DNA from: Thermococcus sp. JdFR-02
Lineage (GTDB): Archaea; Methanobacteriota_B; Thermococci; Thermococcales; Thermococcaceae
Direction: 5' to 3'
DNA: 64,000 nt
Assembly (NCBI GenBank): GCA_002009975.1
Contig: MTLP01000042.1
Span: 192,001-256,000, forward strand
Shown: in pieces, positions 2,608 through 33,222 of the stretch
How positions within the stretch are numbered: position 1 is the first letter of the stretch
How the letters are laid out: each line of letters opens with the position of its first letter
The notes under the pieces: generated by a model
The model's input: only the letters and a program-made list of their open reading frames with translations
What the model was told of the DNA's origin: nothing
Databases searched by the model: none
Translations under genes and position numbers: made by a program

Positions 2608-3686
2608 TTGGAAGAATGCTCAGATTTTCAATCTTTGGAGAAAGTCATGGAAAATGTGTCGGTGTCATTATAGAGGGCTGTCCTCCAGGAATTAAAATCG
2701 ATGTGAAAAAGATAAAAGCCGAGCTTGAGAGGAGAAAAGGTATTGAGAGGCTCTCAACTCAAAGGAGAGAAAAAGATGAACCAATAATTCTCTCTGGAGT
2801 TTTCAATAGTTTTACAACAGGAGCGCCAATAGTTGTGACAGTGGAGAATAAAGATGTTGATTCAAGTTATTATGAGAAGATTAAAGACACTCCAAGACCA
2901 GGACATAGCGATTATACAGCCAAGATCAAGTATTTTGGGTTTAACGATTACCGAGGTGGTGGATTTTTCTCGGGAAGGCTAACTGCGGGAATAGTAATAG
3001 CCGGCTATTTTGCAAAGGAAATTTTAGCAAAAGCTGGAGTAGAAGTAAAAGCTTATATAAAATCAATTGGAAAAGTTAAAGCGAGAAATCTAAGTGTTGA
3101 GGAAATTTTCAACTCAAAAAACAGCTTTTGCCCGGATGAAGAGAATTTTCAAAAGATGATTAAAGAAATTGAAAAAGCAAAGAAAAATGGCGATAGTGTG
3201 GGGGGAATAATTGAAGTTATAGCTTCAAGCGTTCCCCCTGGTTTGGGTGGACCCTTTGATGAAGACTTAGAGGGAGATTTAGCTAAAGCCTTCTTTGCAA
3301 TTCCAGCTGTAAAAGGGGTAGAATTTGGTTTAGGATTTAAGATAGCTGAGCTTAGGGGAAGTGAAGCCAATGACAGCTTTATTATCGAAGATGGAGAGGT
3401 AAAAACAAAAACTAATAACGCTGGTGGGATCTTAGGTGGGATAAGCAATGGAATGCCCATCGTTGCAAGGATAGCTTTTAAGCCAACTCCCTCAATCTAC
3501 AAGCCACAAAAAACGGTTGATCTAGAGAAGATGGAAGAAAGGGAGATTAAGCTTGAAGGAAGATTTGATCCGTGTATAGTACCTAAAGCTTTACCTGTTG
3601 TCGAAGCCATGATGGCTTTGGTTTTGGCAGATCATCTATTGAGGTGGTTAAGTTGGAAAGGCTTTATGAACTTAGGGGAAGAATAG
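2604..3686 (+). CDS. aroC: Chorismate synthase
   Basis: FGESHG, PRPGHSD, RGGGFFSGR, GGILGGISNG and FKPTPSI motifs. Confidence 0.97.
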   Translation: MIGRMLRFSIFGESHGKCVGVIIEGCPPGIKIDVKKIKAELERRKGIERLSTQRREKDEPIILSGVFNSFTTGAPIVVTVENKDVDSSYYEKIKDTPRPGHSDYTAKIKYFGFNDYRGGGFFSGRLTAGIVIAGYFAKEILAKAGVEVKAYIKSIGKVKARNLSVEEIFNSKNSFCPDEENFQKMIKEIEKAKKNGDSVGGIIEVIASSVPPGLGGPFDEDLEGDLAKAFFAIPAVKGVEFGLGFKIAELRGSEANDSFIIEDGEVKTKTNNAGGILGGISNGMPIVARIAFKPTPSIYKPQKTVDLEKMEEREIKLEGRFDPCIVPKALPVVEAMMALVLADHLLRWLSWKGFMNLGEE

Positions 3687-3880
3687 ATGAAATTGACAAA
3701 CAAATCATTGAGCTTTTAGAGGAAAGGATTAGAGTTGCTAAGGAAATTGGAAAAATAAAGAAGGAATTAAACCTGCCAATAAAGGATGAAGAGAGGGAAA
3801 GGGAAGTGCTAAAGAGAGCTGAGAGATTTGGAGAAATCTTTGAGAAAATAGTGGAGGTTTGTAGAGATGAGCAACTTTAA
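3644..3880 (+). CDS. Chorismate mutase (AroQ type, stand-alone)
   Basis: LRGRIDEIDKQIIELLEER...IGKIK...PIKDEERE pattern; follows aroC. Confidence 0.9.
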   Translation: MVKLERLYELRGRIDEIDKQIIELLEERIRVAKEIGKIKKELNLPIKDEEREREVLKRAERFGEIFEKIVEVCRDEQL

Positions 3881-24391: not shown

Positions 24392-25135
24392 CTATTTTTG
24401 GATCAGGTTTAACAATTTCTCTACAGCTTCATTCACATCTTTTGCATCTCTTCCTATCATCACAAAGCCAAACTCTTTTCCATAAGCTTTTTTGTAATTT
24501 TCCACTAAAAGACCATCGTTCACCGTGTCACCGATATAAACTCCTCTTTCTCCTTTAACCAGATGCCAAAGAGCTTTTGGATCTGGTTTAACATAAAGCT
24601 CTCTTGTAACTGCACTTTCAAAGTGGAAGCCAATGAGTTCTTCAGCTAATTTAAGCTCAAGTTTGTTCCTTCCAGTTATAACACCAAGCTTAAACTTTTC
24701 ATTTGCTCTTTCCAAGAGCTCACTCTTAACTATCGGCTTCTCTTTTTTCCAAAGTCCATCAAATTGAAAAGCACTCTCTTCATAGTATCCACCTAAATAA
24801 AAGGTATTAAAAACTCTCTCAATTTCTTCTGACTTAACAATAATCCCAAATTTTTCTCTAACCCACTTAATCCCCTCTCCCTCTGGAAAGCTCTCAACAA
24901 AATCACTTAACTTTCCATTTAAAGCACCAGATATTAACGCTTCACTAACTTTAAAATCGTCTCCAAAAGCGCCTTTTCTTCTCAATACCCTTATTAACTC
25001 TAAGTCAACTTCAATGTTTTTACCAAGCTTTTTTAGAAAATACTCCACCGTGAGCTTTGTTGCTAAGTCATAGCTCTCAGTAACGTCAATCAAAACGCCG
25101 TCAACATCAAAGATTATCCATTTTAGCTTTTTCAT
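24392..25135 (-). CDS. HAD phosphatase, probable histidinol-phosphate phosphatase
   Basis: FDVDGVLID, TGR, KPDP and GDTVND motifs; last gene of a his operon whose hisB is monofunctional. Confidence 0.8.
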   Translation of the reverse strand: MKKLKWIIFDVDGVLIDVTESYDLATKLTVEYFLKKLGKNIEVDLELIRVLRRKGAFGDDFKVSEALISGALNGKLSDFVESFPEGEGIKWVREKFGIIVKSEEIERVFNTFYLGGYYEESAFQFDGLWKKEKPIVKSELLERANEKFKLGVITGRNKLELKLAEELIGFHFESAVTRELYVKPDPKALWHLVKGERGVYIGDTVNDGLLVENYKKAYGKEFGFVMIGRDAKDVNEAVEKLLNLIQK

Positions 25136-26139
25136 TATTTGACCCCCAAAAACTCGTTCAATGCTTTAATCAACTCATTATTTTCCTCCCTTTTACCAAT
25201 GGTAACCCTTATGTGATTAGACAATCTACCGCTCAGATTTCTCACAACTATACCCTTCTCAAGCAGAAACTCGTAAGCGTTGAGCTTCATGAGTAAAAAG
25301 TTGGCTTCACTTGGATAAACATAATCTTTGAACTCCTTGTAAATCCTATCTCTTTCTTTAATTATGTAATTAATGTTTTGTTTAATTACATCATAATGGT
25401 CAAGCATAAGCTCTGCTATCTTCATTGAAAGGGCATTTAGGCTGAAAGGCGACTTAATGCGCAAAAGATAGTCTATTATTTCCTCACTTGCAACAGCATA
25501 GCCAACTCTAATTCCAGCTAATCCAAAAGCCTTTGAAAAAGTTCTCAAAATGACTAAGTTCTCATATTCATTAACTAAATCCACATTACTTCCTTTCGCA
25601 AACTCTATGTATGCTTCATCTAAAATCACTGGAGCGCCGGTTTCAAGGACACTTATTATCTTTTCTCTCTCTTGAGTGTTACCTGTGGGATTGTTTGGTG
25701 AGCAGATAAAGATAGCTTTCGCCTTTTCCGCATAATCTTCAACGTTCTGCAGTTTAAAATTTTCATCTAATGGGACATCAACGAGTTTAATTCCTTCAAG
25801 CTTTGCGTAGAAGTTGTACATTCCAAAGGTTGGAGAGCTTATAACTATGTGTTCTCCTTCAAAGAGCTTTAGGAGATAGGAGATAAGCTCATCGCTCCCA
25901 TTTCCAACGATTATATTCTCTTTTTCAAATCCCAAAAACTCTGCTATTCTTTCCCTTAGAGGATCTGCGGTTATGTGTGGATAGCGGTTTAGAGGTATTT
26001 TCTTCACTTCCTCGAAAATTTCATCTTTAATCTCTTCGGGTAAATCAAAAGGGCTTTCATTCTTATCAAGCCAAATTTTGTAGTTTCCTTCAACCACTTT
26101 ATAGGGCTTGAAGGCTTTAATTATCTCCTCAATCCTCAC
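25135..26139 (-). CDS. hisC: Histidinol-phosphate aminotransferase
   Basis: [25 protein letters not shown] and [15 protein letters not shown] motifs. Confidence 0.96.
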
Positions 26140-26768
26140 TTTCTACGCCCCCTAAGCTCTTTCATAACCTCGCTTAGGCTTATTTCATTATAAGCGAGCA
26201 AAACTAAGAGGTGATAGAGTAAATCAGCAGTTTCATAGATTATTCTTTCTCTTTCTTCAGCGACCAAAACTTCTACTGCTTCTTCCCCAAATTTCTTGTA
26301 TATCTTTTCTTTCCCCTCTTTGAAAAGCTTTGAAGTGTAGGAACCTTCTTTTGGATTTTCTTTGCGCTGCTTTATGACCTCCTCAAGCTCCCTCAAAACT
26401 GTCAATGAGTAGTCAATCCCCCCAACTTCCCTCTCTAGCTCTCCTAATTTCCTGTAAAAGCAGCTCCTATTGCCGGTGTGGCAAGCTACACCAACTTGCT
26501 CAACTATTAAAAGCAACGCATCACTGTCGCAGTCTATCTTTATCTCTTTAACTTTTTGAACGTTCCCGCTAACCTCGCCCTTCATCCTAATTCTCTTTTG
26601 ACTCCTTGAATAATAATGTGCATAACCTGTCTCTAAAGTTTTTCTCAGCGCTTCCTCATTCATATAAGCCAAAGTCAAAACTTCTCCATCAACGCTCTGC
26701 ACAATAACCGGAACTATTTCGCTTTTCTCCCAGTTGACCTGCTTTATAAGCTCATTCAAGTCTGACAT
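26136..26768 (-). CDS. hisIE: Bifunctional PR-AMP cyclohydrolase / PR-ATP pyrophosphatase
   Basis: SRS, KGEVSG, DCDSD, ACHTG..SCF, GSYTSKL, GEEAVE and ADLLYH motifs. Confidence 0.96.
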
Positions 26769-27510
26769 TCACACCCCTCCTCGCTAAATACTCCTTAAGC
26801 TCTCTAACGGTGTACTTTCCATAGTGAAAGATTGATGCAGCTAAAGCCGCGCTTGCACCAATTTCAAATGCATCATAGAAGTGTTCTGGACTTCCAGCAC
26901 CTCCAGAGGCAATAACGGGAATGTCAACAGCCTCGACTATTGCTTTAGTTAGGGGTATGTCAAAGCCCTCCTGCGTTCCATCCGTGTCCATAGAAGTGAG
27001 CAAAATCTCACCAGCTCCCAAACATTCGACCTCTTTAGCCCACTCTATTGCATCTATCCCTCTCGCTTTTCTTCCTCCGTGAGTATAAACCTCCCAAAAC
27101 TTCCCATTCCATTTAGCATCTATCGCTATTACTAAATTCGCACTCCCAACAACTTTTGCCGCTTCACTTACGAGTTTTGGATTGTCAACAGCCGCCGTGT
27201 TGAGGAAAACCTTATCGGCACCGCTCTTTATTATTTCTCTAATCTCCTCAACGCTCTTAATCCCCCCACCAACCGTGAAGGGAACGTAAATCTCCTCAGC
27301 TATCCTCTTTACCAAATCGAGGAGAATTTGCCTCTTTTCGTAAGATGCAGTAATGTCGAGGAAAACTATCTCGTCTATCCCTTCCTCCTCATAGCGCTTT
27401 GCCAGCTCTATTGGGTCTCCGGCATCTCTGATATTCTGAAACTTTATTCCCTTTACAACTCTCCCCTCTTTTATGTCCAAGGCAGCGATAATCCTCTTAG
27501 CGAGCATCAC
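26752..27510 (-). CDS. hisF: Imidazole glycerol phosphate synthase, cyclase subunit
   Basis: [29 protein letters not shown] and ASGGAG motifs. Confidence 0.97.
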
Positions 27511-28190
27511 AATACCTCCAAAATCTCTTCTAAGCTTATTTTCTCCTCATAGAGAGCTTTTCCAACTATTGCTCCAGAGAACCCAATTTCTTTGAGCTTT
27601 AGGATATCTTCAACGCTTGAGACCCCACCAGCATAGATGAACTCCTCTCTGCCCCAAAAGCGCTCTATCTTTTCAATTCCCGTCAATGTGCCGTCCTTTT
27701 CTATTGCCGTGTAAATGAACCTATTAACGTACTTTTTGAGCATCTCGTAAGCCTCTTCAACGGTTATAGAGCTCTCCTCCTCCCAGCCTTTTACAGCTAT
27801 CCTCCCGCCTTTAGCATCTAAACTTACAGTTATCCCTTCAAAATCCTGCGTTATTTTTTCTAAAAACTCCAAATCAAAGGCTTTTGTGCCTATTATGACG
27901 TTCTCAACTCCAATTGAGTAGGCTTTCGCTATGCTCCCATAGTCCCTAAAGCCTCCACCTACCTGAACCTTCAGCCCCGTCTCCTCTATTATTCTCCTCA
28001 CGACGTCGAGGTTCTTTGGCTTTCCTTCAAAGGCCCCATCTAAGTCAACAACGTGTATTTTATCGAGAAGCTTGGCAAAATCCTTAGCTATCTCTACTGG
28101 ATCTCCATAAACTTTTATGCTCTCTTTTTTACCCTTATAGAGCCTCACAGCTTTCCCACTCATTAAATCTATTGCAGGGTAAATCCTCAT
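27507..28190 (-). CDS. hisA: ProFAR isomerase
   Basis: [25 protein letters not shown] and DGTLTG motifs. Confidence 0.96.
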
Positions 28191-28191
28191 C

Positions 28192-28779
28192 TCACAGCCT
28201 CCTGAAGTTTTCTAAAAGCCTCAACCCATTTTTGCTCGACTTTTCTGGGTGAAACTGAACTCCAAAGACGTTATCTTTGCAAACTGCTGAAGGAAATACT
28301 ACTTTCTTCCCCTTTGACTCATAATCCGTTACAGCTGCAATCACTTCTTTGTCTTGAGGATTTACGTAGTAGGAGTGCACGAAGTAGAAGTAGCTCCCGT
28401 TCTTGATTCCATCAAAGAGTGGGCACTCTTTAGCAGGAAAAACTTGATTCCAGCCTATGTGAGGGACTCTAACACCTTTAAACTTCACTACATTGCCTTT
28501 AAAGACTTCTAAGCCTTTCCCTTCGCTTTCTTCACTACACTCAAACAAAAGCTGCATCCCCAAGCATATCCCGAGGAATGGTTTTCCTTCATTGATCGCA
28601 TCTAAGATCGTTCCTTTTAGAGGCTCAAGCCTTTTCATCACTGCTCCAAAGTTCCCTACCCCTGGGAGCACAATTTTATCAGCTCTCTCAATCTCATAGG
28701 GGTCACTCGTGATTATTCCACCCAAGGCTTTTCTAACATTTGCCAAGTTCCCAATCCCTAAATCAACTATTGCTATCAT
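28192..28779 (-). CDS. hisH: Imidazole glycerol phosphate synthase, glutaminase subunit
   Basis: PGVG, GICLGMQ, PHIGWN, YFVHSY and QFHPEKS motifs. Confidence 0.97.
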   Translation of the reverse strand: MIAIVDLGIGNLANVRKALGGIITSDPYEIERADKIVLPGVGNFGAVMKRLEPLKGTILDAINEGKPFLGICLGMQLLFECSEESEGKGLEVFKGNVVKFKGVRVPHIGWNQVFPAKECPLFDGIKNGSYFYFVHSYYVNPQDKEVIAAVTDYESKGKKVVFPSAVCKDNVFGVQFHPEKSSKNGLRLLENFRRL

Positions 28780-29310
28780 TCACAGCACCCCTTTTGTGCT
28801 TTCCAAACGCTCGCTCTCTTCCAAAGCCTTTCTTAAAGCGACGCCGAGTCCTTTAAATGCCGCCTCAATGACGTGGTGGGCATTAACTCCGCTCAGCTGC
28901 TTCACGTGAATTGTAGCATTTAGTGTCCTCGCTAAAGCCCAGAGAAACTCCCTAACTAAAGTGAGCTCAAATCCCTCTTCGCTCTCTTTGAAATCAAGCT
29001 CGAGGTTTAAGTAAGGTCTCGAGATATCTACGGCAACCAAGACTAATGCATCGTCCATTGGCATTATCGCATTCCCAAAGCGTGCTATTTTCTTGCCCTT
29101 AATTTTCCCCCTAAGCTCTTCTCCAAGTGTAATAGCTAAGTCTTCCCATAAGTGATGCCTCAAATCCCATTTCGCTTTGACATTAGCCTTCTCTTGCATG
29201 TAAAAGAACAAAGCAGTAAGGAGGTGGTCTAATACCCTATCTCCAGTATTTATCTCCCCTTCAACGCCAATTTCGACAATTATATCAACTTCCTTAGTTT
29301 TTCTTCTCAT
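28780..29310 (-). CDS. hisB: Imidazoleglycerol-phosphate dehydratase (monofunctional)
   Basis: DHLL, HHLWED, PMDDAL and [11 protein letters not shown] motifs. Confidence 0.96.
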
Positions 29311-30434
29311 CTTCTTACCTCCAGAGCTTTTTTGTGGAGTTCTAACCCCTCAATCTCCGCTAAGCGAATTCCCAAATATCTTTCACTCAAGAACTCCTCT
29401 CTGCTGACGTAGGCTAAGCTAATTCTTTTCATAAAGTCCATAACCGTTAAAACCGAGCTGAATTTAGCCGCTCCACCAGTTGGAAGGACGTGATTGACTC
29501 CCAAGAAGTAATCCGCTGCTGGGACTGGTGTATACTCTCCCAAATAAATCGCCCCAGCATTTTCGATTAAGTCCACAAGCTTTAGAGGCTCTTTTGTGAG
29601 TATCTCCAAGTGCTCTGGAGCAATCTCATTGACCTTTTCCACACACTCCTCTAAGCTTTTGCACAAGACAACCTTAATGCCTTCCTTGTTACAATATTCT
29701 GCTAACTCTTTTGAAGTCGTGAGGAGCCAAGCCTTTGAGTCTTTCCCGTGCTCTAATTGGGAGAGCAGATCAGCCAAGACATAATCTTTATTTGCACTTT
29801 CATCAGCTATTACTGCTATCTCCGAAGGACCAGCTAAGCTGTCAATCCCAACAACGCCAAAAACCTGTCTCTTCGCTTCATTCACGAACTTGTTCCCAGG
29901 ACCAAAGATTTTGTCCACTTTCTTCATCCCAATGCCATAAGCCATTGCCCCAATTGCTTGGATTCCACCGAGCTTGTGGATCTCTTTAATATCGAGGAGC
30001 TTTGCAACGTAGAGGATATAGGGATTAATTTTTCCTTCTTTTGGTGGCGTAGTAACGACTATCTCCTTAACGCCAGCTATCTTTGCTGGAACCCCAACCA
30101 TTATGAGCGTTGAGGGGAGAGGCTTTCCTCCCGGAACGTAGATACCAATTCTTCTAATCGGCTTATAGATTATCCCGTAAAGCGATGCGTTCTTTATGTA
30201 GAGCTTATCATTTTCAAGCTGTCTTTCGTGGTACTCCTTAACGCGCTCGATAATTATTTGAATTATCTTTTTGTCCTCTTTTGGAATCAGTTTCTCAGCC
30301 TTTTCGAATTCTTCTTCTTTAACTAAAAACTCCCCCTCATAGTTATCAAACTTCTTTGAGTACTCCCTAAGAGCTTTAACTCCCCTAAACTTTATATCAT
30401 CTAAGATTTCTCTAACATAACTCTCTAACTTCAT
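29307..30434 (-). CDS. hisD: Histidinol dehydrogenase
   Basis: [27 protein letters not shown] and NHVLPT motifs. Confidence 0.97.
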
Positions 30435-31051
30435 TACAACCCCTCCCTAATGACCTTCTTAATCCTCAAAACCAAGTCATTGATCTCTTCAAACTTCATC
30501 TTTTGGGAAATTCTATTAACCAAAAGCAGAGCAGAGACATCCATTATTTTTTCAGCTTCAACTAAGCCATTAGCCCTTAGAGTGTTTCCAGTTTCAACTA
30601 CATCAACTATCGCATCAGCTATTCCAACTTTTGGAGCCAATTCTATAGCCCCACTAAGCTTTATTATCTCAACTTCAACTCCTTTGCTTTCAAAGAACTT
30701 TTTTGTTAGGTTTGTGTATTTTGTGGCAATTCTAAAGCCCTCCATCTCCTCGACATCAGTTATGCTTTCTTTGGGCATCGCTAAACTTAGCCTGCACTTT
30801 CCAAAGGGCAATTCAAGAGGAACAAAGACATCGCTCTCTCGCTCTTCTACAACATCACTTCCTGAAATCCCGACATCTATACCATGCTCTACATAAACTG
30901 GAACATCAAACGCCCTTGCGAGTAAGAGCTCATATCTTCCGTTTTTCACAATCAACTCTCTATTCTCTGGTGACTTAAGTCCAATTCCAGCTTTGGTAAG
31001 AATTTCAAGCGAACCTTGGAAAAGCCTGCCTTTTGGTAAAACAATCCTCAT
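30434..31051 (-). CDS. hisG: ATP phosphoribosyltransferase, short form
   Basis: PKGRL, IATKY, GAIELAP and DVVETGNTL motifs; about 205 aa with no regulatory domain. Confidence 0.96.
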
Positions 31052-31938
31052 TCTTTCACCTCCACTGGAATTCCAAGATTTACGAGTTCTTTTGCAAGTT
31101 TATATACCTCTTTAAGCTCTCCTCTGATTGTTTTACGATTCTTTTCGATTTTTCCACTGTAGAGCTTAGATAGGACGTTTAAATCAAAGGCAAAGCCAAA
31201 GGCATCTATTCCATTGAATTTGTATTCTCCGCCACCTCCAAGTGGATAGCCAAGCTTTGGAGAATAGATTTCAAAGATAATGTCGCTGTAATAGGGCAAC
31301 GGTCTAATAGTCCCAAAATCTATGAAAATTCTATCATCACCCAGCGCTTCTACAATCAGGTTAAGCTTTTCATAATCGCTCTTCTTCCCTCTAAAGTTGA
31401 AGAGACGCCAAAGCTCTTCTTTTTTCTCTTCGCTAATTGGGAGTCTTTCAATTATCTCAAAGTTTCTTTTAGCCAAAGCTCTAAAGATTTCCTCTCTAAA
31501 CTCTTCAATCCCCTTAATTGCATTCTCCCAAACCTTCAAGCTTCCAATGTCGATGTAAAACTCTTTAATCCCAAGAGCTTCAAGTGAAGTTATAACGGTC
31601 ATTAAGACCTCAACTTGCATCCAAAGGTCTTTTCCTCCGATAAATTCAACTCCTGCCTGCCATTTCCCTTTAACTCCACCGTTTAGCACTTCACTTATGT
31701 AAAAGAGCTTTAGTCTTCTTGGCTCTTTTAGATTCACCAATATTTGCGATGTTAAATCAGGTTTTATTACGTAGAAGCTGTTGTTGTAAGCAAATTTTGT
31801 GCCCTTCCTAAGACTCTCCCTGTATTCTTCAACCGTCGGTAGGAAAATCTCTTTATATCCCCAAAGCTCAAATGTTCGCCTTAAATATTTTGTAATATCT
31901 GCTAAGCGTTCTGATTCGGAAAATACATCCTTTTTCAC
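31048..31938 (-). CDS. hisZ: ATP phosphoribosyltransferase regulatory subunit
   Basis: HisRS-like fold ([32 protein letters not shown]); next to short hisG; SD GGAGGG before the GTG start. Confidence 0.9.
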
Positions 31939-32016
31939 AATAGTCCCTCCAAAAAGTTTTTGATTAAAACTTCTCTAATTGAAATGCAATCTAACAAGTC
32001 AATGATGCCAGAATAG

Positions 32017-32121
32017 TCAATGATGATGATGGTAGTAACTCACCGCTAAGCTTGAAGAAGAAAAGTTTTCTCTAATTATGCTCTCGTTGTATCCTGTTTT
32101 TATTCTTCCCTCTTTCATCAT
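32017..32121 (-). CDS. Putative his leader peptide MMKEGRIKTGYNESIIRENFSSSSLAVSYYHHHH* (34 aa)
   Basis: Hand translation. SD GGTGAGG (32130-32124), ATG ATG, four CAT codons directly before TGA; lies between the TATA box and hisZ. Confidence 0.8.
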   Translation of the reverse strand: MMKEGRIKTGYNESIIRENFSSSSLAVSYYHHHH

Positions 32122-32153
32122 AACCTCACCTAAGGGCAAAGAATCGCAAGGGG

Positions 32154-32170
32154 TATATAAAGTTATCCCT
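32154..32170 (-). promoter_or_regulatory. his operon BRE/TATA promoter
   Basis: Minus strand reads AGGGATAAC-TTTATATA (TATA 32161-32154); the expected start site is near 32130-32133, at the leader SD. Confidence 0.7.
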
Positions 32171-32250
32171 AATTATTCTGGAATATTAACATCAACTCAA
32201 AAAAATTTTGGAGGAAATTTGGATAAATGTTAAATTGGAAGAGCTTAATT

Positions 32251-33222
32251 TCATCTTTTTGCAACGGTATTGATTAGCCTAAGCAAGTAGGCATTTTCCA
32301 TTGTCAATTCTGCACCTTTGTTCCTTGGAACTCCAAGTTCAATCTTCGCCCTTATTCCATGAGCTTTTAGGTACTCATGAACTTTAACACTTAAACCCTG
32401 ATACTCACTCTTCTTGATTAGACCATAAACTGTCGGTCCCCAAGAGCTTTGCCCATATCCATAGGTATTTTCCTTCAAAAAGTCGAGGATAAGCTTTACA
32501 TCTTCCCTAAATTCCCCACCTTGATAGCTTTCAAAGTATGCTCCAACCAAGGCTTGAATTTCACTTAAATACTTTCCAAAAGTTTCTATATCTCTCTCTT
32601 TTAGTGCTGGTAAAAGCCCAAGCAAAACTTTGTGGCTTATTTCCCTTGCAATCTCAACTTTTCCGCTTATGTTTTTCATTATTGGTTTTTCCTCTTCTTC
32701 ATCAAAACCCCTCTTAATCTCTGGAGTTACTATCAAAAATGCCCATTCTTCTGGGAACTCTTCTCTAACGATTAAAGGAGGAATGTCATTCCTAACACCG
32801 CCATCAATGACAAAGCCACCATATTTGAAGGCATAAATCCCAGCTCCAGAATTTTTACCTCTTTTTAAAATCCTTGCTAATTCTTCAATTTCAATGCTCA
32901 AATTGTTGATCTTTGCAAGTCCTAACGCAACCGCTAAGCTTAGCTGTGTTGTTGAGCCCAAACCAACATGCCTTGGAATTTCTCTTTCGACTTCTATTAA
33001 ATAGTTGAATCCAGTTCTAAACCTCTCATTTAGCTTTGAGACTGTAAATTTGATTGTTTTGACGTCTTCTCCCTTAGCTTTAATTTCAAGCCTATCATGA
33101 GGAACAAGCCTTATTTTGTATCCTCCTTCAAGTGCAACCCCTAAAGACCCGAATTTTCTCCCTAATGCACTACTTAAGTCAATTAGACCCAAGTGAAGAC
33201 GTTTTGGTGTTTCAATTATCAT
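32251..33222 (-). CDS. Beta-ribofuranosylaminobenzene 5'-phosphate synthase family (GHMP fold)
   Basis: PKRLHLGLID, HVGLGSTTQ, GGFVIDGG and GQSSWGPT motifs. Confidence 0.85.
   Translation of the reverse strand: MIIETPKRLHLGLIDLSSALGRKFGSLGVALEGGYKIRLVPHDRLEIKAKGEDVKTIKFTVSKLNERFRTGFNYLIEVEREIPRHVGLGSTTQLSLAVALGLAKINNLSIEIEELARILKRGKNSGAGIYAFKYGGFVIDGGVRNDIPPLIVREEFPEEWAFLIVTPEIKRGFDEEEEKPIMKNISGKVEIAREISHKVLLGLLPALKERDIETFGKYLSEIQALVGAYFESYQGGEFREDVKLILDFLKENTYGYGQSSWGPTVYGLIKKSEYQGLSVKVHEYLKAHGIRAKIELGVPRNKGAELTMENAYLLRLINTVAKR

Follow-up and report, generated by a model that had tools for sequence, protein, structure and literature searches.

Leader-peptide attenuation is a textbook mechanism of gene control in bacteria. 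A variation on this theme is provided by tnaC of E. coli, which senses free tryptophan through its nascent peptide and induces a catabolic operon, that of tryptophanase. Archaea exhibit transcription-translation coupling and polarity, and they terminate transcription by U-tracts and the CPSF73-like factor FttA. Among the literature examined, the closest mechanistic analogue of the case presented below is the set of poly-Cys open reading frames (ORFs) of mycobacteria, which are described as cysteine-responsive translational attenuators, wherein stalled ribosomes block structures that otherwise sequester the next ribosome-binding site (RBS) (10.1101/834739). The subject of this analysis is a short ORF ending in a run of His codons that is located in front of the his operon of Thermococcus sp. 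JdFR-02, within a stretch of 64,000 nucleotides (the window; positions 192,001 to 256,000 of contig MTLP01000042.1). Ribosome-sensed control by histidine is known in bacteria and apparently has not been described in archaea. Searches of full-text literature, together with parts of a 2026 review on termination and a 2023 review on his operons, gave no archaeal leader-peptide attenuation, and an earlier mention is possible, with most subscription journals and the supplements outside the literature searched.

Judged from its sequence and its relatives, this leader is probably a translated regulatory ORF that senses histidine from the head of the his messenger RNA (mRNA), which would make it an archaeal functional counterpart of hisL. 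An earlier note on this DNA had reported a TATA box, a Shine-Dalgarno (SD) sequence and a 34-codon ORF ending in four CAT codons 78 nucleotides upstream of hisZ, and direct reading of the sequence confirms each of these observations. The elements of the leader, in window coordinates, are as follows.

32161-32154, minus strand: TATA box TTTATATA of the leader and his promoter, 40 nucleotides upstream of the leader ATG
32130-32124, minus strand: SD sequence of the leader ORF, GGTGAGG
32121-32119, minus strand: leader start codon ATG, followed immediately by a second ATG at 32118-32116
32121-32017, minus strand: leader ORF of 34 codons plus TGA, encoding the peptide MMKEGRIKTGYNESIIRENFSSSSLAVSYYHHHH followed by the stop
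32039-32044, minus strand: conserved purine block GGTGAG (feature 32027..32045), 8 nucleotides before the first His codon
32031-32020, minus strand: four tandem CAT (His) codons, the proposed sensor
32019-32017, minus strand: leader stop codon TGA
32010..32016, minus strand: pyrimidine tract CTATTCT directly 3' of the stop (family consensus CTNTTCT)
31998..32007, minus strand: second copy of CATCATTGAC, 18 nucleotides downstream of the first and in frame with it

In the list of ORFs for the window, the leader frame appears as 32017..32139 (minus strand), with 40 amino acids counted from an upstream TTG. The leader is absent from the gene calls and deserves annotation.

Relatives were picked by the presence of hisZ and not by the presence of a leader. 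There are 97 genomes of the family (Thermococcaceae) that were searched, and the upstream DNA of all 49 that carry hisZ was analysed. The earlier note had proposed looking for a short ORF with a terminal His run in orthologous leaders, and such an ORF is present in every one of the 49. The run is located at most three codons from the stop in 48 of these leaders, the exception being L047, wherein TGA has changed to TGC and the ORF reads ...HHHCRLFYN before its stop. There are two His codons in 23 leaders, three in 25, and four in only one, which is that of the focal genome. Leader length ranges from about 12 to about 43 residues. The gene hisG is always found directly 3' of hisZ, and the set of genomes with hisG matches the set with hisZ except for two genomes that are cut at a contig edge. 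There are 13 additional Thermococcus/Thermococcaceae loci that have the leader, most of which appear to belong to the same species as the counted genomes and are thus not independent. The distribution of the operon itself is patchy, with hisZ and hisG each found in 49 of the 97 genomes and spread over all six genera, a pattern that suggests that the operon has repeatedly been lost or transferred as a whole, its leader included.

Leaders of this kind are also found in the same class outside the family. There are two further families (f3 and f4) that carry long-form hisG without hisZ, and 20 upstream regions from them were analysed. In one hisG paralog group of f4, all seven loci have an ORF of 23-33 codons that ends in ...SCTAHHH and is located about 43 nucleotides before hisG, with HHQ and YHHN as variants of the ending. 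Both of the f3 loci have a short ORF ending in ...GLHHHR about 53 nucleotides before hisG. Thus, His-terminal leaders precede 9 of the 20 hisG loci outside the family. The peptide bodies in f3 and f4 are unrelated to the ...LLVSY[C/Y]HHH ending of the family, and the features common to the three groups are the short ORF, the terminal His run and the position just before the first his gene. This recurrence with unrelated sequences is hard to explain other than by function. The second hisG paralog group of f4 has a His-terminal leader in none of its 11 loci. Several f4 genomes (G129, G040, G033, G037, G125 and G036) carry two long-form hisG paralogs, and the leader is found only before the paralog that is closer to the query.

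No such leader is found at any of 30 hisZ loci from outside the class (DHVE2, Bathyarchaeia, Methanomethylicota, Nitrososphaerota and several bacteria), nor at any of 30 hisG loci from another archaeal phylum, for each of which 1.5 kilobases upstream were scanned. Among the genomes searched, the His-terminal leader is therefore class-specific. The explanation that both the ORF and its trinucleotide repeat arose by chance, for which nothing but the short length of the ORF speaks, is refuted by these counts (49 of 49 in the family and nine loci in two other families, against none of 71 control loci) and by the uniqueness of the run in its genome.

That uniqueness was established on both strands of the whole genome (2,362,347 bases, 38.1% guanine plus cytosine), wherein four tandem CAT codons occur once, at the leader. 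Four CAY codons followed by a stop likewise occur only there. A genome-wide scan for short ORFs with an SD and an ATG that end in a run of one residue in front of a long ORF yielded 20 candidates under strict and 62 under relaxed settings, and the leader is the only His case among them. Other amino acids do not appear to be served in this way, since none of 20 further run-terminated short ORFs precedes an amino-acid biosynthesis gene. The trp operon is apparently absent from the genome, wherein no match to IGPS exceeds the cut-off. The conserved core motif of the leader (described below) has no second copy in the genome, and on this basis an operator or motif shared by a multi-gene regulon is ruled out.

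Several features argue that the ORF is translated. Over the 1349 codons that separate the ATG from the His run in the 49 leaders, the frame of the ORF has no stop, whereas the other two frames contain 135 and 57; the frame was in part chosen for being open, and the weight of this comparison lies in the maintenance of lengths of 9-38 codons across diverged lineages. Insertions and deletions were compared in 39 pairs of leaders that are at least 80% identical. Within the ORF, 8 of 10 gaps are a multiple of three (3, 3, 3, 3, 3, 18, 18, 18, 2 and 4 nucleotides), compared with none of the 4 gaps in the spacer and none of the 18 in the 5' flank. A strain that is about 97% identical, known from four runs of RNA libraries, has exactly one CAT fewer. 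Of the 49 leaders, 45 have an in-frame ATG with an SD of five nucleotides before it, whereas such an SD accompanies 8.1% of all ATGs in the same loci; the P-value of this enrichment is overstated, the genomes being related. A TATA-like hexamer is located 26-56 nucleotides upstream of the leader ATG in 35 of the 49. The kept frame, the missing in-frame stops and the geometry of TATA, SD and ATG argue for a translated ORF.

The peptide itself seems to matter little. In the same pairs, the ORF (0.106 substitutions per site) changes at a rate like that of the spacer (0.110) and the 5' flank (0.077), and the substitutions within the ORF are distributed evenly over the codon positions, as 116/136/120. 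A frame that is kept open while its body drifts neutrally is the pattern of a regulatory leader, wherein translation matters and the product does not, and not that of a small protein with a function of its own. A Pfam search with three leader peptides at E values up to 10 gave nothing, and the exact focal peptide is absent from a collection of 15 billion proteins.

The choice of His codons is strongly biased. There are 121 CAT and 4 CAC codons in the leaders of the family, compared with 284 CAT and 416 CAC in the long ORFs of the same loci (121 and 229 in the GC-rich half of them, GC denoting guanine plus cytosine). All long ORFs of the loci were used as the control, hisZ being unusable because it has nearly no His. 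The f3 and f4 leaders have 21 CAT and 4 CAC codons. The genome contains a single transfer RNA for histidine (tRNA-His), with the anticodon GUG, so every CAU must be read by a G:U wobble. Selection for a slowly decoded, starvation-sensitive codon would be a natural explanation of the CAT bias.

Beyond the His codons, there is a conserved core that reads GGTGAG-CTACTGC-CATCAT(CAT)-TGA-CTNTTCT. The stop codon is TGA in 48 of the 49 leaders of the family. The pyrimidine tract CTNTTCT begins 0-6 nucleotides after the His run and contains no known FttA motif. In relatives without the TGA the tract is translated (endings HHLF, HHPF and HHRLF), and elsewhere it is located after the stop yet is still conserved, so it must matter as RNA or DNA. 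A ribosome stalled on His codons covers roughly 12-15 nucleotides downstream, and the tract is located within this expected footprint. Upstream of the run there is a preference for GTG and TAC, both of them minor codons in the AT-rich focal genome. The GGTGAG block provides an SD-like motif at -16..-5 in 39 of 49 leaders and, judging from its sequence, could serve either as an internal SD-like pause site or as the 5' arm of a hairpin (P1) formed with the first His codons. We do not claim P1: 81% of its cells are paired and at least 6 of 7 pairs form in 35 of 49 leaders, but there is only one two-sided change. It is further weakened by the repeat, through which shifts of +/-3 score 77-78%, and by RNAalifold, which gives no consensus structure. 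In the focal leader only, there is the second copy of CATCATTGAC, which when read past the first stop encodes LFWHH and another stop. This 10-mer has four copies in the genome, of which two are at the focal leader.

We infer the stalling, the direction of its effect and the read-out from these features. Transcription from the TATA box at 32161-32154 would start a few bases before the SD, which would make the leader ORF the first cistron. With ample charged tRNA-His, ribosomes would decode the CAU codons, terminate at UGA and be released. Under a shortage of it, a ribosome would stall on the CAU codons and stay on the mRNA, and reading by wobble alone with tRNA-His(GUG) would make these codons especially sensitive. 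The stalled ribosome would cover the UGA and the tract CUNUUCU and would melt whatever the His codons pair with, such that his expression rises. The earlier note had likewise taken the His codons as a sensor within a translated leader, and this part is backed by the comparative evidence (49 of 49, two other families and clean controls), whereas the focal sequence does not yield a predicted switch at the RBS. The elements relevant to the read-out are as follows.

31939..32016, minus strand: spacer of 78 nucleotides from the leader stop to hisZ, with U4 at 31966-31969 and U5 at 31951-31955
31950-31945, minus strand: SD sequence of hisZ, GGAGGG, conserved in the family alignment
31048..31938, minus strand: hisZ (ATP phosphoribosyltransferase regulatory subunit; GTG start at 31938, 296 amino acids, NCBIfam HisZ), first gene of the operon
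24392..31051, minus strand: hisG, D, B, H, A, F, IE and C plus a HAD-type hydrolase

There are three read-outs that could be considered for the focal leader. Tentatively, the stalled ribosome may prevent sequestration of the hisZ RBS, which would be attenuation at the level of translation as in ermC and the poly-Cys ORFs. A somewhat doubtful possibility is that it prevents premature termination at the U4 and U5 of the spacer, involving FttA/aCPSF1 and Spt5 in the manner of tnaC and Rho. It is improbable that it acts by protecting the mRNA from 5'-to-3' decay, a read-out that requires no structure and leaves the tract unexplained.

Some leaders are compatible with the first of these read-outs. 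The spacers are 24-80 nucleotides long across the family. When the RNA after the ORF is folded alone, 32 of 58 leaders show pairing, with at least 3 expected base pairs, between the zone under a stalled ribosome and that of the SD. In 18 of the 58 this pairing exceeds that of shuffled sequences, no more than 3 of 60 of which attain the same value. A helix of 13 base pairs is formed in one clade, wherein the region from the hisZ SD through the start codon pairs with the last His codon, the UGA and CUCUUCU. Compact hairpins between anti-SD and SD are predicted in several leaders with short spacers and in the f3 leaders. As separate observations, f4 leaders L156-L162 have a conserved hairpin, CGCCA-UUUU-UGGCG, that adjoins the hisG SD, and in a variant, CGUCA...UGGCG, the pair persists as G-U. 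The 3' half of the SD is joined with the AUG by another small hairpin, and this arrangement is a compact candidate for an expression platform. The leader is usually in frame with hisZ, with 37 of 49 spacer lengths divisible by three, and in-frame stops in the spacer exclude a fusion protein. Shared ancestry of the clades with spacers of 75 and 78 nucleotides may explain much of this regularity. A relay of coupled ORFs that begins with a TTGA overlap at the stop of the leader and reaches the start of hisZ was rejected, because it is seen in only 3 of 49 leaders.

For the second read-out, the earlier note had expected termination without a GC-rich hairpin, possibly by oligo-U. The expectation about the hairpin holds, as a scan of 31700-32500 gave terminator-like sites on the plus strand only. 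The oligo-U idea fares less evenly, with U4 and U5 present in the focal spacer and tracts of at least four T in only some of its relatives (counted below). According to a 2026 review (PMC13675443), the KH domains of aCPSF1/FttA recognise U tracts, Spt5 bridges FttA to the elongation complex, and U-rich sequence is the only kind whose recognition is documented. Archaeal polarity is attributed to FttA in a 2025 review. By analogy with tnaC, where the Rho site is masked by the stalled ribosome, it is plausible that a held ribosome masks the tract after the stop from FttA. A broader form of this proposal is that, throughout the class containing Thermococcales, the pioneer ribosome stalled on CAU occludes the tract, perhaps keeps Spt5 engaged, and shields his mRNA from termination by FttA/aCPSF1. 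We regard this generalization as unlikely. If true, it would mean that archaea have a counterpart of tnaC/Rho that works without a hairpin, and it would be the first case in which the coupling of transcription and translation in archaea has a physiological regulatory use. Taken together, the sensor is conserved, whereas the expression platform may differ between lineages.

A number of observations weigh against a His-sensing leader or against its proposed read-outs. The transcripts of the 97% identical strain come from four metatranscriptomic runs of one sample in one study, and ends, strand and level are not readable from the assembled RNA contigs. These contigs extend unbroken from hisZ through the spacer and the His codons, with an end at 32109-32110 in three of the four runs, and separate contigs begin at 32123, 32185 and 32216. 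They hint, weakly, at transcription of the leader together with the his genes and at a transcript start close to the 5' end of the leader. In run X1, one contig covers the whole stretch, for which DNA or read-through is a possible cause. In addition, 23 of the 49 leaders have only two His codons, whereas the hisL leader of enterobacteria has seven. The aromatic and lysine/arginine operons of the window are without a comparable leader, so this is no general strategy in the organism and the His leader stands alone.

Predicted RNA structure is also of little help. RNAalifold finds no consensus pairs on the core, and leader structures at 75 C are near 0 kcal/mol. Relative to shuffled sequences, the z score of the duplex with the RBS is below -2 for no more than 13 of the 49 leaders, and it is +1.63 for the focal one. 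A mask representing the His-stalled ribosome raises the predicted accessibility of the SD by more than 0.2 in 8 of 49 leaders, compared with 4 of 49 for a control mask. In the focal leader, accessibility changes from 0.33 to 0.31 under the stall mask, and the SD pairs with other spacer sequence (0.12 expected base pairs with the stall-covered zone versus 5.22 elsewhere). The predicted partner of the tract varies among the 48 leaders scored: it is the hisZ RBS in 16, none in 13, the ORF body in 9, the spacer in 6 and the 5' untranslated region in 4. On these grounds, anti-SD pairing was dropped as a universal read-out and is retained for a subset of leaders. In f3, the anti-SD arm starts about 14 nucleotides past the A site of a ribosome stalled on the last His codon, at the edge of what such a ribosome can cover. 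The hairpin might there be opened by the terminating ribosome instead, and the logic would then be reversed. As for termination, no more than 28 of 49 spacers have a tract of at least four T, frequently some 31 nucleotides before hisZ, and 12 have one of at least five.

Finally, the core is constrained beyond what coding demands, as is evident from the preference for CAT, the TGA in 48 of 49 leaders and the tract after the stop, and judging from sequence a factor-bound RNA or DNA element could be the source of this constraint. This leads to the main rival explanation, wherein a factor acting in trans (for example a repressor, a protein that binds RNA, or tRNA-His) recognizes the core (GGTGAGCTACTGC-CATCAT-TGA-CTNTTCT), and the ORF is tolerated or incidental. 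Such an element would account for the codon ratio (121:4 against 284:416), for a tract that is kept even where it is untranslated, and for the minor codons GTG and TAC that are favoured before the run. However, it leaves unexplained why gaps preserve the frame in the ORF (8 of 10) and never in the flanking sequences (0 of 22), why in-frame stops are missing, and why an SD, an ATG and a TATA box are arranged in front of an ORF body whose sequence varies. Nor does it explain the unrelated leaders of f3 and f4, which share only the His-terminal ORF. The motif has no second copy in the genome, and a search of 31000-33000 against Rfam at E values up to 10 gave no match to T-box, His_leader or any other family. 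We therefore consider a factor-bound core to be distinctly unlikely.

Less probable still is a regulatory ORF that is translated but does not read the charging of tRNA-His. It might be an upstream ORF that constitutively damps expression, or its nascent ...VSYCHHH might sense free histidine in the way that TnaC senses tryptophan. The location of the His run next to the stop recalls the critical residues of tnaC, and the last seven residues are fairly conserved, such that 39 of the 49 leaders of the family have Val at -4 and 36 have Tyr at -2. But the residues at -1 (C/Y/R/L) and -3 (S/T/I/R/N/D) vary widely, and the leaders of f3 and f4 have only the His run in common with those of the family. 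In addition, the variants ending in LF, PF or RLF shift the His residues away from the stop, and the nearly exclusive use of CAU read by wobble suits a sensor of decoding rate and would be irrelevant to a sensor based on the peptide. These considerations make this alternative quite improbable.

A small functional protein, such as a metal-binding peptide with a His tail, would also be expected to have the SD, the ATG, the promoter and the conserved C-terminal His cluster that are present here. This explanation is very improbable given a body that drifts neutrally over all three codon positions (116/136/120) and at a rate equal to that of the non-coding spacer, a length that varies from about 12 to about 43 residues, and the failure to find the peptide in Pfam or, exactly, in the 15 billion proteins. 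An antisense C/D-box small RNA, of which the CAT run would be the C box (RUGAUGA), was rejected as hardly credible. It is suggested by a plus-strand match of Rfam sR44 to 31998-32051 and by 35 of 49 leaders having a perfect C box in antisense. But the match is weak, at 16.8 bits (E 0.39) against a gathering score of 45, and the C box is an automatic consequence of the CAT repeat. An RNA of this kind has 50-70 nucleotides, with the C box near its 5' end and the D box (CUGA) near its 3' end, and a D box is placed correctly, 30-65 nucleotides downstream of the C box, in only 3 of 49 leaders, with a background of 0.11 per 39-nucleotide window.

There are several further observations on the promoter region and on the surrounding genes. 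An internal promoter for hisZ was rejected as the general case, because a usable TATA-like hexamer is found in only 6 of 49 spacers, with the focal spacer among these six, and nine spacers are no longer than 44 nucleotides. About 20-40 nucleotides upstream of the TATA box in L002-L006 there is a 15-nucleotide palindrome, TTGTCATATTGACAA, with variants containing GACA in other genera and a degenerate form in the focal genome. It may be the operator of a DNA-binding regulator that acts besides the leader. The leader sits in an intergenic region of 312 nucleotides, with the gene for beta-RFAP synthase (32251-33222) as its upstream neighbour. The order of the operon behind it is hisZGDBHAF(IE)C. 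The last gene of the operon (24392-25135, minus strand) encodes a HAD-superfamily hydrolase that resembles the TIGR01548 family below the cut-off and is a candidate for the missing histidinol-phosphate phosphatase. HisZ is nearly free of His, with only 8 His codons (1 CAT and 7 CAC) pooled over 49 hisZ genes, while His makes up 1.6% of codons genome-wide. This scarcity fits a biosynthetic enzyme that avoids its own end product.

Positions 1-35130 of the window form an island of genes for amino-acid and cofactor biosynthesis. Its aromatic genes are those for EPSP synthase (1390-2607), a chorismate synthase-like ORF and a small chorismate-mutase-like ORF (3587-3880). Also included are argG, argH, carA, carB, a cluster for lysine of the homocitrate synthase/LysW type, the his operon, beta-RFAP synthase and dihydropteroate synthase.

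A His-sensing leader would be of interest because it makes ribosome-sensed gene control experimentally approachable in archaea. The family that carries it includes genetically tractable species, and with a leader present in every assessable his operon of the family the hypothesis is directly testable. The leader would also offer a natural handle on how the ribosome influences archaeal RNA polymerase, FttA and Spt5.

When compared with known systems, the leader is most readily likened to hisL of enterobacteria, where a short ORF led by an SD is likewise located directly before the first his gene and has tandem His codons near its C-terminus. By analogy, its product would be dispensable, its translation would be the signal, and the ribosome would sense charged tRNA-His. 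Unlike hisL, it has two to four His codons instead of seven, with the run at the very end of the ORF, and the first gene is hisZ instead of hisG. It also lacks a GC-rich terminator hairpin with a U run, as well as conserved alternative hairpins; archaeal RNA polymerase is not known to use hairpin terminators. There is no match to the His_leader models of Rfam and Pfam. Thus, the leader would work like the bacterial hisL, yet it is not a member of the His_leader family. A T-box riboswitch offers no parallel, as Rfam gives no match to its model at E values up to 10 in 31000-33000.

The ermC leader also bears some resemblance, because stalling in a short leader frees the downstream RBS there, and in B. 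subtilis the mRNA is in addition stabilized against 5'-to-3' decay. Archaea have RNase J-like enzymes, so stabilization of this kind would work in them too. The signal differs, being an antibiotic-bound ribosome in ermC and not the charging of a tRNA. As in tnaC and Rho control, the proposed sensor residues are located beside the leader stop (within three codons in 48 of 49 leaders), and they are followed by an untranslated spacer, wherein a termination factor could act before hisZ is reached. A ribosome held at the stop would cover the sequence just 3' of it, which here is a conserved pyrimidine tract. Unlike the case of tnaC, stalling with an empty A site would induce a biosynthetic operon, and the archaeal factor would be FttA/aCPSF1 with Spt4/5.

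The mycobacterial poly-Cys ORFs come closest in mechanism (10.1101/834739). In both cases an unannotated short ORF forms the first cistron of a biosynthetic operon and carries a run of cognate codons, and the kind of pairing that these attenuators employ is predicted in 18 to 32 of 58 leaders, although not in the focal one. The poly-Cys ORFs are leaderless and belong to a regulon of several loci, whereas the ORF described here is led by an SD and serves a single locus.

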